From a phage: 64,000 bases of DNA. Below are positions 46,159 through 51,471 of this stretch, piece by piece. The notes below the pieces were generated by a model. The model was not told the DNA's origin. It saw only the letters and a list, made by a program, of their open reading frames with translations, and ran no database searches. The first letter of the stretch is position 1; each line of letters opens with the position of its first letter. A program made the position numbers and the translations under genes. The stretch lies in NCBI GenBank assembly GCA_036253055.1, contig GCA_036253055.1_4124.1, one strand, 5' to 3'.

Positions 46159-46353
46159 CTAATCCTCGCTGAAGACAACAATAAGGAATGACACGAATAA
46201 TGCCGCATAACAAGGAGCTATCTTCATGTACCACGGGACTTCATAATACCATGTACCCAATTCATCCCACGAAAAGAGTATACTCAAACCGAAGCCGATT
46301 AGCGATAGTACAATAAAAGAAATCCAGAAACGCGTTGAATATACTAATAACAT
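46159..46353 (-). CDS. small membrane protein
   Basis: 64 aa hydrophobic; SD AAAGGAAC. Confidence 0.45.
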   Translation of the reverse strand: MLLVYSTRFWISFIVLSLIGFGLSILFSWDELGTWYYEVPWYMKIAPCYAALFVSFLIVVFSED

Positions 46354-46391
46354 GTTATGTTCCTTTGTGTAACCGAAGTCAACCCTTTCCT

Positions 46392-46907
46392 TTAATAATT
46401 ATTCATTTCATCTTTGATTTGTTCTTCAATTTCGTCGAACATATCAGTACTAGATTCGTTCTTACTACTTACGTTCTGCATATCTTTAACGTACTGTGGA
46501 CATTCAACATCAGTAAACTTATACCACGTAGGCTTCATCTGGAGCTTCTCAATCAAACGATCACGAGACATTTTAATCTCTGACTCCGTTGGTACGTAGT
46601 CATTACAAAACTCAGCAGGGAAGCCGCTAATGTCGTTTACTTCAGTGTTTTGAATCTTCATACCACGACGCAGACATTCGTTGACAATATCAATATGACG
46701 CTTCTGTAAGTACAATAACTTGTCGTAAAAGAATGTCACATGACCTGAACCTAACAGATAAGTACTATTAATTTTGAAATCACGTACACGCTTACGTGCT
46801 TGAACGTGTTTTTGTACAGCACCAAATACACGTGGGAGTTCACGATATTCAGCCATCAGATGTTGGTCAGCAAGTTCTTTAACGTGTACTAAGTTAATGC
46901 GTGTCAT
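46392..46907 (-). CDS. denV: pyrimidine-dimer DNA glycosylase (T4 endonuclease V-like) with C-terminal extension
   Basis: N-terminus [34 protein letters not shown]...RVRDFKI...[10 protein letters not shown] closely matches T4 DenV as recalled; about 30 extra acidic C-terminal residues. Confidence 0.85.
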
Positions 46908-46974
46908 GTATTCATCCTCTCGTCTTGATGAAATAATTATAGCAAAAAGGGCTGACCGAAGTCAACCCTTTTCT

Positions 46975-47244
46975 TTATTCAATGATCCCCAACTTCACAA
47001 TCTCATACCCGTCCAGATAGCCGTAGGAACACTCAGGTGTTTCATAAGATGAACCATCATGGATGCCCTGGCATTGACTTTTGGAATTCTCAAGCAATCG
47101 TTGCAGTACTGATACGTCATCAAGAACGTAATACAAGTTAGCATATAGGTCAGTTACAATACAGTACTCCAACATATCAAATGTATCAATCGAAATTTCA
47201 ACCTTAGCAAATCGTTTCTTTTCTTTATTATACAGTGCGTACAT
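46975..47244 (-). CDS. hypothetical protein
   Basis: Start moved to ATG 47242-47244 (SD GGAGA); track start was TTG. Confidence 0.4.
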   Translation of the reverse strand: MYALYNKEKKRFAKVEISIDTFDMLEYCIVTDLYANLYYVLDDVSVLQRLLENSKSQCQGIHDGSSYETPECSYGYLDGYEIVKLGIIE

Positions 47245-47245
47245 A

Positions 47246-47617
47246 TTAATCTCCATAATCAAGTTTAACTAACTTACCACCCAGATACCCAAAGTTTTCT
47301 GGCTTCGCATCTGAATAGAAGAAGTCAGTACTCAACTCTGATTTAGATGCTAATGCACACAACTCCACCCAAAATAAACCCCTATGTTGCACTGGCTTAC
47401 AACGTTTCTGTACAGTTACTAGTCCAGTACATGATGACCACAACGTAGGACAGATACTACTATCACTACGATTGGAGTACTGCATCCACGAACGTTCATT
47501 GAGGTTAGCTATCATCCCTGTTAAGAATAGCTTCCAACTTTTAAAGGTTGGAATCTTGATAGCATATTCCCCAATGAGGATAACAGTTCGTGTTGCACCT
47601 TTCAAATCTATATTCAT
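47246..47617 (-). CDS. minimal or truncated protein kinase-like protein
   Basis: YAIKIP (VAIK-like), DAKPENFG (HRDLKPEN-like), KLDYGD (DFG-like) then stop; start uncertain (ATG 47615-47617 or GTG 47662). Confidence 0.35.
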   Translation of the reverse strand: MNIDLKGATRTVILIGEYAIKIPTFKSWKLFLTGMIANLNERSWMQYSNRSDSSICPTLWSSCTGLVTVQKRCKPVQHRGLFWVELCALASKSELSTDFFYSDAKPENFGYLGGKLVKLDYGD

Positions 47618-47625
47618 ATTTTTAA

Positions 47626-47877
47626 TTAGAAGAACACAAACCAAGTCCAGAACAAATTCCACATTACAAATAAAGACATAGTGGTTTTATGTACAATATC
47701 AGCAGTACTGGTCCATCCTCCACCGTGTCCTATTCCATTTATGAATAGAACTAAGAACAAGATACCATTTACTACAATAGTACATACTAAGTACACAAAT
47801 ACATTCCATGCAAGTCCAGGGGATACTAAAGTAAATGGTAAAACTATTAGTAGTATTAGAACTAATAATATTTTCAT
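47626..47877 (-). CDS. small membrane protein
   Basis: 83 aa hydrophobic; SD GAGG. Confidence 0.45.
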   Translation of the reverse strand: MKILLVLILLIVLPFTLVSPGLAWNVFVYLVCTIVVNGILFLVLFINGIGHGGGWTSTADIVHKTTMSLFVMWNLFWTWFVFF

Positions 47878-47916
47878 TTATCGCCTCACTTAATTAACGT
47901 GACATATCACGTAATA

Positions 47917-48093
47917 TTAGTACGAATCAGATTCCCAGTACTCGATTGCTTCTTTCAGCAATTCTTTAGCACGTTGTTTTGCAATGCGAGCGGGAAACTG
48001 ATATGTGTACATTAACTGACGCTTCACTTCATTCAGTGAAAGCTGTTCATGGTACAGTGCATCCATCAGTCGATTACGAGTACGTAGTTTCAT
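47917..48093 (-). CDS. small hypothetical protein (58 aa)
   Basis: Not in track; hand-translated MKLRTRNRLMDALYHEQLSLNEV...; SD AAGGATAA. Confidence 0.4.
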   Translation of the reverse strand: MKLRTRNRLMDALYHEQLSLNEVKRQLMYTYQFPARIAKQRAKELLKEAIEYWESDSY

Positions 48094-48104
48094 ATAAGTT
48101 ATCC

Positions 48105-48659
48105 TTATTTCAAAGAATCATAGTAAGCAGTGTCAAAGATTGGAGTCATAATAACATAGTCAATACGGTCAATGTAAGTTGAACTCCACATTTCTGGTTT
48201 GTCATATAACTGACGCTCGCGTTCATTCATACGAGTCAGTACTTCTTCCAATTTACTACGTGAATCCATCAATGTATTACTCGAACCATAAGTGAAGTAC
48301 TCAGTCCAATGATATTCATATTCAGTACTGATAGATTGAATAGTACCATCTTTGAAATGAGCTAAGGCATAACCTTTCTCTACAAAGTTATCAGGTGGAA
48401 GAACACCATCTGGATTAGTTTTCAATGCTTGTGCTAACTTTTCTTTAATTTCAGTTAACGTGCATACTGAACGAATGTTCTTCAGGTTTGATACTTGAAA
48501 ATCACTGTACTTTCCAAAGAAAAAGACACGCCAATCTTTAGGTTCATTATCAGATACGGTAGCATCAGGGTGATGGGCGAGTAAACGAAGAAGGCCAGCT
48601 TTATGACCGTTAATGTAGATTTCATGGATGTGGTTAGCAGTTTTCTTAAAAGTAATCAT
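48105..48659 (-). CDS. hypothetical protein
   Basis: 184 aa; SD GAGGAA; early-type promoter and hairpin at about 48670-48730. Confidence 0.55.
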   Translation of the reverse strand: MITFKKTANHIHEIYINGHKAGLLRLLAHHPDATVSDNEPKDWRVFFFGKYSDFQVSNLKNIRSVCTLTEIKEKLAQALKTNPDGVLPPDNFVEKGYALAHFKDGTIQSISTEYEYHWTEYFTYGSSNTLMDSRSKLEEVLTRMNERERQLYDKPEMWSSTYIDRIDYVIMTPIFDTAYYDSLK

Positions 48660-48735
48660 GGTAGTTCCTCGATTGTAGGGATGAGAAGTTCATCCCCTTG
48701 ATAAGCATTATACAGTACTGAATGTGTTTGTCAAC

Positions 48736-49116
48736 TCAAAATAAATTCATTTCATGTGCGTATTGTGGTTCAAGATAAGATAAGTTTTTGAAACTGTCTT
48801 TCAATTCCGCATCATCTACGTACACAGTACCAGGTACATTCCCCATAGTGAAGCCAACCCAAACAGTCATGTTTCCAGTTCCTAAGCGGGGCATTGATAG
48901 CGTCCCATCAGGTGAAACATCAAACGCTACACTAAAGTCATCCGTTACAACTTCCGAACCATTTTCCAGAATAATACAACCACGTTCTTTAAGCTTCTGA
49001 ATGTGGATAGCAGCCTCTACAGCACGTTTAAAGTTATAGTAAGACTCTTTATCCTCAAACATAGATTGTTTAACCAGACGCTTGTTTAGCTCGGTTACTT
49101 TGTACATTTGTCGCAT
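48736..49116 (-). CDS. hypothetical protein
   Basis: Start moved to ATG 49114-49116 (TAATG overlap); uncertain. Confidence 0.4.
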   Translation of the reverse strand: MRQMYKVTELNKRLVKQSMFEDKESYYNFKRAVEAAIHIQKLKERGCIILENGSEVVTDDFSVAFDVSPDGTLSMPRLGTGNMTVWVGFTMGNVPGTVYVDDAELKDSFKNLSYLEPQYAHEMNLF

Positions 49117-49370
49117 TATTTCAACACCCATAGTGGTAGGATTTCATATGAACCTGGAGGTGCTGGATTGATAATCTCAGGGTATTCAGTACTGTTAGGA
49201 TTACCACCAGCATTGAACTCAGCAAGTAATAATTCGAGTTCATTCCTATCATGTACAACAAACACGCAATATCCAGTTCCTTCTTCAAGAACTGTAGTTG
49301 AACCCGCACAATCCCATACGGTATCAATACATAATAATTCTTTAGTGTTTTTATTACGCAACGCAAACAT
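49116..49370 (-). CDS. hypothetical protein
   Basis: 84 aa; SD AGGAGA. Confidence 0.5.
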   Translation of the reverse strand: MFALRNKNTKELLCIDTVWDCAGSTTVLEEGTGYCVFVVHDRNELELLLAEFNAGGNPNSTEYPEIINPAPPGSYEILPLWVLK

Positions 49371-49379
49371 ATATGTCTC

Positions 49380-49724
49380 CTATCGATTCGGCATATTCTT
49401 TCGTAGTCGCAAGAGAAATTCAACCACTGACCATGTTGTAATGAAGGCAATATAAGTTGCAAGGAATCCAGTAAGAATAAATGCAACCAGCGTACTACCA
49501 TTTGGGGAATCAGTTTTAATGCCGATGACACCATCGGCTACAGTGAAACATGTAGCCATTAATGTGTAACCTACGTACAACACAAAGAAAAACTCATTCT
49601 CCATTGAAGGATAGAAACGGTTAAACACTTTATAAAATTTAAAGTACAGTAGGATTATACCAACAAAGGCATAGAATGTAAACAGTGTTGTTATAATATA
49701 TGAGATTAGGTTCAAATTATACAT
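49380..49724 (-). CDS. small multi-pass membrane protein, paralog family C (second cluster)
   Basis: Start moved to ATG 49722-49724 (SD GGAG); C-terminal RKNMPNR as in the 39.8-42.6 kb array. Confidence 0.45.
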   Translation of the reverse strand: MYNLNLISYIITTLFTFYAFVGIILLYFKFYKVFNRFYPSMENEFFFVLYVGYTLMATCFTVADGVIGIKTDSPNGSTLVAFILTGFLATYIAFITTWSVVEFLLRLRKNMPNR

Positions 49725-51402: not shown

Positions 51403-51471
51403 TACTTTATCCTCTGTAGTTAATATCAACATCATAACAAAAAAGGCTGACCGAAGTCAACCCTTTTATTA

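Follow-up and report, generated by a model that had tools for sequence, protein, structure and literature searches.

The locus considered here raises two questions: whether a short minus-strand gene of a jumbo coliphage encodes a true counterpart of the T4 endonuclease V (DenV), and what is to be made of the acid-rich stretch that follows the part of the protein shared with T4. We propose that denV of this 121Q-type coliphage encodes a glycosylase specific for cyclobutane pyrimidine dimers (CPD) with AP-lyase activity, and that its tail is an optional add-on, most likely a selected tethered peptide; we assign this joint reading a probability of roughly 0.88.

The Gene, Its Source, and Its Annotation

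The window, that is, the whole stretch of 64,000 nt that was analyzed, corresponds to positions 92,244-156,243 of the record of Escherichia phage 121Q, on the reverse strand. Phage 121Q is a Rak2-like jumbo myovirus of the genus Asteriusvirus with a genome of 348,532 bp, and a megablast search with window positions 46000-47400 matched it (NC_025447) over the full length at 99.9% DNA identity. This is a stretch of small genes, and in the part inspected for strand (roughly window 44000-49500) nearly all of them lie on the minus strand. Within this region, the ORF list contains a single frame that spans exactly 46392..46907 on the minus strand, with its ATG at 46907-46905 and its TAA at 46394-46392; the 171 codons that precede the stop yield a protein of 171 aa. 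The ORF that the original prediction had placed here therefore exists, and all of the protein strings quoted in that prediction are found in its translation.

The coding sequence is gene 217 of 121Q. The predicted protein is 100% identical to 121Q gp217 and also to the protein of phage SP27, and RefSeq labels the former "endonuclease V N-glycosylase UV repair enzyme"; relatives are likewise annotated as endonuclease V. Thus, both the gene and its assignment were already known. In keeping with this, a T4 endonuclease V glycosylase is listed among the repair genes of Rak2-like jumbo phages (PMC7824862; PMC5259590). The denV of 121Q-type jumbo coliphages is a known, annotated UV-repair gene that is ordinary apart from its optional acidic tail. 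Genome annotations and comparative work on jumbo phages already state that phages of this type encode an enzyme of their own that incises DNA at UV dimers in one step. The same protein, in a 171-aa or 167-aa form, is encoded in 19 independent phage records, which argues that the C-terminal extension is not an artefact of sequencing or gene calling. No NCBIfam model matched DenV or its three neighboring ORFs, and no tRNA gene or Rfam family reached threshold anywhere in window positions 1-64000.

Catalytic Core and Family Membership

Several lines of evidence place the first 131 codons (46515..46907, minus strand) in the family of the T4 enzyme, a pyrimidine-dimer DNA glycosylase/AP lyase. First, a phmmer search against all PDB chains gave 2END as the best match (E=2.4e-54), with residues 1-131 aligned to residues 1-131 without a gap, and the only entries returned were those of T4 endonuclease V (2END, 1ENI/J/K, 2FCC, and 1VAS). 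The ungapped alignment contains 85 identities in 131 positions (64.9%), so that the original statement that the first 130 or so residues follow T4 DenV holds. The protein also passes the Pfam family PF03013 (Pyr_excise) with 55.8 bits against a gathering cut-off of 23, and the profile of PHROG 1183 ("endonuclease V N-glycosylase UV repair enzyme") aligns to it with an E value of 8.7e-59, 137 of the 139 positions of the profile being covered. The similarity of the core to the T4 endonuclease V family is far beyond chance. A Pfam match to DUF6376 over residues 104-167 reached 17.4 bits, below its cut-off of 27.3, and was rejected.

Second, the residues on which the T4 enzyme depends are retained. 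The mechanism of endonuclease V is known from the T4 structures 2END and 1VAS and from mutagenesis: Thr2 provides the alpha-amino nucleophile, Glu23 is catalytic, and Arg3, Arg22, Arg26, Arg117, and Lys121 contact the DNA. The 121Q-type protein keeps all of these, together with Trp128 and Tyr129, and its N-terminus reads MTRINL, which places the threonine directly behind the initiator methionine as in T4. Across an alignment of 90 homologs there are 36 invariant columns, among them T2, R3, R22, E23, R26, and R117, and K121 is conserved in at least 90%. The original prediction had named a failure to reach significant identity with T4 DenV, or the absence of the catalytic threonine and glutamate, as what would overturn it; the alignment is highly significant, and both Thr2 and Glu23 are present.

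Third, the predicted structure agrees with the T4 fold. The AlphaFold2 model of the 171-aa protein (mean pLDDT 91, pTM 0.79) has helices at residues 14-36, 64-80, and 108-124, and a Foldseek comparison of this model with the PDB found 2END at E=7e-17, with a target-normalized TM score of 0.94 and an rmsd of 1.2 A over 133 columns. Nothing other than T4 endonuclease V was matched in that search with an E value below 2. The compact all-alpha fold with three main helices is thus matched by an AlphaFold2 prediction rather than by a solved structure.

The core departs from T4 in one place that may matter. The aromatic stretch WYKYY of T4 (residues 128-132), which has been implicated in dimer binding, reads WYKFT here, a form common to all Rak2-like orthologs: W128, Y129, and K130 are kept, Y131 is replaced by F, and Y132 is replaced by T. 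Because the stretch is only partly kept, substrate handling could differ in detail from that of the T4 enzyme.

It might be argued that a protein derived from DenV has lost its repair activity and been reused, for example, as a DNA-binding regulator. We consider this highly improbable given that the catalytic and DNA-contact residues are all present and nearly all invariant in the 90 homologs, that the predicted fold is unchanged, and that the core is under strong purifying selection (pN/pS of 0.10 among nine Asteriusvirus genes). Rather, the ORF very probably specifies a functional pyrimidine-dimer glycosylase/AP lyase of the DenV type. Homology, key residues, and the fold match to the T4 enzyme together make it a sound inference that the gene gives the phage a capacity to repair UV damage, as originally predicted. 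Full-text literature searches, which were not aimed specifically at activity assays, returned none for this protein.

By comparison with T4, we infer the following enzymatic activity for the 121Q-type protein. After removal of the initiator methionine, the alpha-amino group of Thr2 would attack C1' of the 5' pyrimidine of the dimer, giving an imino (Schiff-base) intermediate. Glu23 would assist both cleavage of the glycosyl bond and the beta-elimination that nicks the strand, while Arg3, Arg22, Arg26, Arg117, and Lys121 would grip the kinked DNA, with the base opposite the dimer flipped out. Base-excision repair would then be completed by host or phage enzymes.

Expression Signals and a Repeated Cassette

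The gene has a plausible sigma-70-type promoter and ribosome-binding site of its own. The candidate promoter, TTGACT-N18-TATAAT with an upstream TG (46936..46965, minus strand), matches the consensus at 11 of 12 positions and lies 30-60 bases upstream of denV on the same strand. A Shine-Dalgarno sequence can be read in the GAGAGGA region (46915..46920, minus strand), with its AGGA 7 nt before the ATG. Overlapping the promoter is a terminator-like hairpin, AAAAGGGTTGACTTCGGTCAGCCCTTTTT, with a UUCG loop and a T-run (46944..46973, minus strand; -20.4 kcal/mol, z=-6.0), and this hairpin looks like the terminator of the gene upstream of denV. The -35 box of the denV promoter lies inside the stem, so that the RNA hairpin of termination and the DNA -35 box of initiation would use the same bases.

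This arrangement is not confined to denV. A core, GGGTTGACTTCGG, occurs in 12 copies in the window at no more than two mismatches, all on the minus strand, against 0.47 copies expected by chance, and the cassette copies at 45674 and 43506 fold as well as the copy at denV. The repeated cassette, AAAGGGTTGACTTCGGTCAGCCCTTTTTGCTATAAT, is found at 46944-46973, 45662-45690, and 43494-43522 on the minus strand, in each case as a hairpin with a UUCG loop of about -19 to -20 kcal/mol; its stem carries the -35 box, and a TGnTATAAT promoter follows 18 nt downstream. The core also occurs at 51451, 52537, 54114, 57538, 3408, 8196, and 12220. The repetition suggests that denV belongs to a large set of small cassettes, each with a terminator at its end and a promoter of its own at its start. 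In the related phage CBB, RpoD-like promoters are concentrated in a region of short early ORFs that includes the endonuclease V gene CBB_519 (PMC5259590). By analogy, denV would be transcribed early by the host RNA polymerase.

Anatomy of the C-Terminal Tail

The T4 enzyme (PDB 2END, 1VAS, and 2FCC) and the 121Q-type protein are alike in their first 131 residues (65% identity, the MTRINL start, the key residues, and the all-alpha fold predicted here) and unlike beyond them. The T4 protein ends at residue 138 (..WYKYYGKAIYA) and has a pI of 9.4, whereas the 121Q-type protein continues through a linker and an acidic motif to residue 171 and has a pI of 6.2. The difference in length is 33 aa, and residues 132-171 have no counterpart in T4. 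The original prediction of about 30 extra acidic residues was therefore correct as to the extension itself and not as to its size and composition: it comprises 40 residues, and these are acid-rich rather than acidic throughout. The 40 residues include 11 D/E and three K/R (net charge -8, pI 4.05), with nine of the D/E in the last 30, whereas the core has a net charge of +6 and a pI of 9.4.

Alignments of 28 homologs, and of nine Asteriusvirus genes together with that of Xanthomonas phage XbC2, resolve the tail into three parts. The first (codons 132-144; 46476..46514, minus strand) replaces the YGKAIYA of T4 and is common to Rak2-like DenV proteins, most of which end at 144-147 residues. The 144-aa forms, which stop at about its end, include those of Klebsiella phages RaK2, K64-1, and Muenster, Cronobacter phage GAP32, Pectobacterium phage CBB, and Escherichia phages PBECO4, SHEFM2K, and phAPEC6. 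These are orthologs at 67-96% identity, share residues 132-144, and have their genes in the same region, one of small genes of the early type; they differ from the 121Q-type protein in lacking the linker and the end motif, and in SHEFM2K the membrane ORF that follows denV is missing as well.

The second part (codons 145-156; 46440..46475, minus strand) is a Ser/Asn-rich linker of variable length that evolves neutrally, with a pN/pS of about 1.0 and indels such as a 4-aa deletion in ph0011 and the absence of 13 aa from the 158-aa forms P0003 and P0004. The third (codons 157-171; 46395..46439, minus strand) is an acidic, amphipathic end motif with the consensus (F/Y)(D/E)xIExQIK(D/E)EMNNY, which is conserved in Asteriusvirus, in P0008, and in the P0009/XbC2 proteins; it reads YEDVERQIKEEMNNY in XbC2, YENIERQIKEEMNNY in the metagenomic P0009, and YEDIEQQIKDEMNLE in P0008. 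Within Asteriusvirus, pN is 0.021 for the motif, 0.017 for the core, and 0.090 for the linker, and against XbC2, which belongs to Mimasvirus, the corresponding values are 0.19, 0.14, and 0.34. When the motif is treated as a helix, its hydrophobic moment is 0.48, a value reached by eight of 5000 shuffled sequences, and F157, I160, I164, and M168 fall on one face. The extended proteins of XbC2 (179 aa), P0009, and P0008 share the three-part tail with the 121Q-type protein; their cores are 69-72% identical to its core, their linkers are longer and unrelated, and their neighboring genes are different.

The tails of the two extended proteins that were modeled are predicted differently. In the AlphaFold model of the 171-aa protein, the tail is one helix (residues 138-169, pLDDT 72-85). 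In the model of P0009, an ortholog of the XbC2 type with a longer linker, the helix also begins at residue 138 and is confident to residue 155; the linker is then disordered (pLDDT below 50), and the end motif forms a helix at 164-177 (pLDDT 50-57) that is not confidently docked. The pattern of the P0009 model fits a helix-forming peptide that is tethered without stable docking on the core.

Tethered acidic C-terminal peptides are known from other DNA-metabolism proteins, namely, the C-terminal tip of Escherichia coli SSB and the tail of T7 gp2.5, and the eukaryotic glycosylases NEIL1 and UNG2 have disordered tails. The DenV tail resembles those of the SSB type in architecture alone, in that a variable flexible linker leads to a conserved acidic motif, which is short and in DenV mostly has an aromatic residue at its end. 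In keeping with this layout, the linker evolves at a pN/pS of about 1 with indels, the motif is conserved, and the P0009 linker is modeled as disordered. The DenV tail differs from these peptides in that it shares no sequence similarity with them, in that its motif is predicted to be helical and amphipathic, and in that the motif is present on no other 121Q protein. The likeness is considered here only as a functional analogy.

Distribution of the Tail and Plasticity of the denV 3' End

The full form of 171 aa (or 167 aa) is encoded in 19 of the closest phage records; in about 16 others, which are Asteriusvirus-like, the match ends at residue 135-143. The tail is therefore present in about half of the Asteriusvirus records, with 121Q, G17, and Sharanji as tail-bearing examples and PBECO4, SHEFM2K, phAPEC6, and slurp01 as tail-less ones. 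A neighbor-joining tree built from the core alone splits the tail-bearing proteins into three clades, which diverge from one another by about 30% in the catalytic core and all of which have tail-less sisters. This distribution implies either repeated loss of the tail or exchange of 3' ends. Since tail-less forms make up about half of the records and occur in all three clades, the tail must be dispensable.

The 3' end of the gene is where related genomes diverge. Compared with SHEFM2K, the window carries about 355 extra nt, which begin within the last part of denV and reach as far as the promoter of the conserved gene that comes next, and this segment holds the tail, a degenerate copy of the cassette core GGGTTGACTTCGG (46373..46385, minus strand), and gp218. 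The degenerate copy lies just past the denV stop codon, does not fold, and marks the break in homology with other Asteriusvirus genomes: in other tail-bearing genomes, homology is lost exactly there, and megablast matches begin at window position 46372 (position 373 of the query). The gp218 ORF (46159..46353, minus strand) has 64 codons and two hydrophobic segments predicted to span the membrane, is absent from SHEFM2K, and gave no family match. Because it has its own ribosome-binding site and no clear promoter, it is probably cotranscribed with denV, by read-through of the degenerate cassette copy that does not fold.

The neighbors of denV differ among eight Asteriusvirus genomes (loci L008-L015) and include an HNH endonuclease, a DNA N6-adenine methyltransferase, a protein with an AAA-ATPase domain, and gp216/gp218. 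Such differences in closely related phages suggest that the denV cassette sits in a highly plastic region, and the finding that tail-bearing genomes have different neighbors suggests that the tail travels with denV and not with gp218. Extensions unrelated to this tail are found on the DenV proteins of other jumbo phages (P0013, P0017, P0023, and P0070).

In Salmonella phage SD-2_S15 (P0005, OR699181.1), the DenV protein has 242 aa and is an in-frame fusion of the first 137 or so DenV residues with a homolog of gp219 (cf. window 45693-46052), which would reflect either a deletion across the denV 3' end or an assembly error. The MAFFT placement of this fusion suggested that the tail itself derives from the downstream gp219, an origin that was rejected after BLASTP gave no alignment. 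On the side of denV toward which transcription proceeds, about 1 kb away and beyond the three small ORFs gp218-gp220, lies a Cys-rich ORF of 487 aa (43881-45344, minus strand) that is annotated as "endonuclease" in 121Q and as "homing endonuclease" in SHEFM2K.

Searches for the Tail in Other Proteins

The 40-aa tail alone gave no candidates in a word-indexed protein database and no matches in an exhaustive phmmer search against 1.84 billion cluster representatives. When the last 25 residues were compared with 50,697 phage records by tblastn, only the 19 Asteriusvirus denV genes were found, and no other phage gene was detected at that sensitivity. For the whole 121Q genome (the window and six loci), every stop-to-stop segment that was 30 aa or longer was searched for the motif, both with regular expressions and with an HMM of 19 positions, and DenV was the sole match. 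The next-best candidate, inside a membrane ORF at 40946..41260, had an E value of 0.17 for the whole genome (0.025 against a smaller ORF set) and was judged to be due to chance. The single-strand-binding protein of 121Q has no acidic tail. Because the motif is found only on DenV in 121Q, it is not a docking peptide shared by several phage proteins, and the sequence points to no partner. No description of a C-terminal extension of DenV was found in the searchable literature.

Possible Functions of the Tail

In the reading that we favor, the tail would pair a flexible linker of variable length with an acidic amphipathic helix that is conserved. This helix may bind a partner protein, or it may settle transiently on the basic face with which the enzyme itself binds DNA, where it would tune non-specific scanning of DNA. 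The contrast between the fixed amphipathic end motif and the freely changing linker, seen across three clades, argues that the tail is under selection. Against this, the tail is dispensable and the sample is small; the support for selection on the motif is also statistically weak because only 15 codons are involved and because the motif is conserved at the nucleotide level as well, with strongly AT-biased codons. We put at about even odds the proposition that the tail is a selected tethered peptide, whether it serves in partner recruitment or in transient autoregulation of the basic face. More tentatively, and as somewhat less than an even bet, we suggest that the linker and (F/Y)(D/E)xIExQIK(D/E)EMNNY form a portable regulatory peptide, repeatedly gained and lost on jumbo-phage DenV proteins under selection, that would either bring the glycosylase to a DNA-metabolism partner of phage or host origin or gate its electrostatic scanning. 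We know of no such peptide regulation in this glycosylase family.

The plasticity of the locus invites another explanation, in which the tail is functionless, was added to the denV 3' end by illegitimate or cassette-mediated recombination at an indel hot spot, and persists because it is harmless. The roughly 355 extra nt relative to SHEFM2K do begin inside the end of denV and bring a small membrane ORF with them, homology between genomes breaks at the degenerate cassette directly after the stop codon, and the flanking genes vary from genome to genome. The unrelated extensions in P0013, P0017, P0023, and P0070, the SD-2_S15 fusion to gp219, a linker with a pN/pS of about 1, and the frequency of tail-less forms all point the same way. 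Against neutral accretion stand the significant amphipathicity of the end motif and the near identity of its 13-15 residues in three clades that diverge by about 30% in the core, with an intervening linker that is free in both length and sequence; we regard such accretion as less likely than not. The tail could instead be an intramolecular regulator, its acidic helix folding back to mimic DNA in the basic groove of the core, which would lower non-specific affinity and tune one-dimensional scanning, a mode of search for which the T4 enzyme is known. The opposite charges of core (pI 9.4, net +6) and tail (pI 4.05, net -8), which bring the whole protein to a pI of 6.2, agree with this, as does the modeling of the tail of the 171-aa protein as a helix at pLDDT 72-85. 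We consider it quite improbable, however, given that the end helix of P0009 is modeled at a pLDDT of only 50-57 behind a disordered linker, so that AlphaFold sees no stable docking.

If the tail is a peptide for recruitment or autoregulation, it would provide a small and tractable case of a minimal DNA glycosylase acquiring regulation, and the existence of tail-bearing and tail-less natural phages allows a direct comparison. T4 endonuclease V has been explored as a topical treatment of UV-damaged skin, and natural variants with altered DNA scanning would thus be of some applied interest.

Elsewhere in 121Q, gene 11 (locus L005, 10502-10930) encodes a hypothetical protein of 142 aa, unrelated in sequence to the DenV tail, with an extremely acidic C-terminus (..GVEDQDDEEYYDDEEDSQY) that has a net charge of -11 in its last 20 residues and ends in an aromatic residue; it adjoins a UvsW-like helicase inside the replication/recombination cluster.
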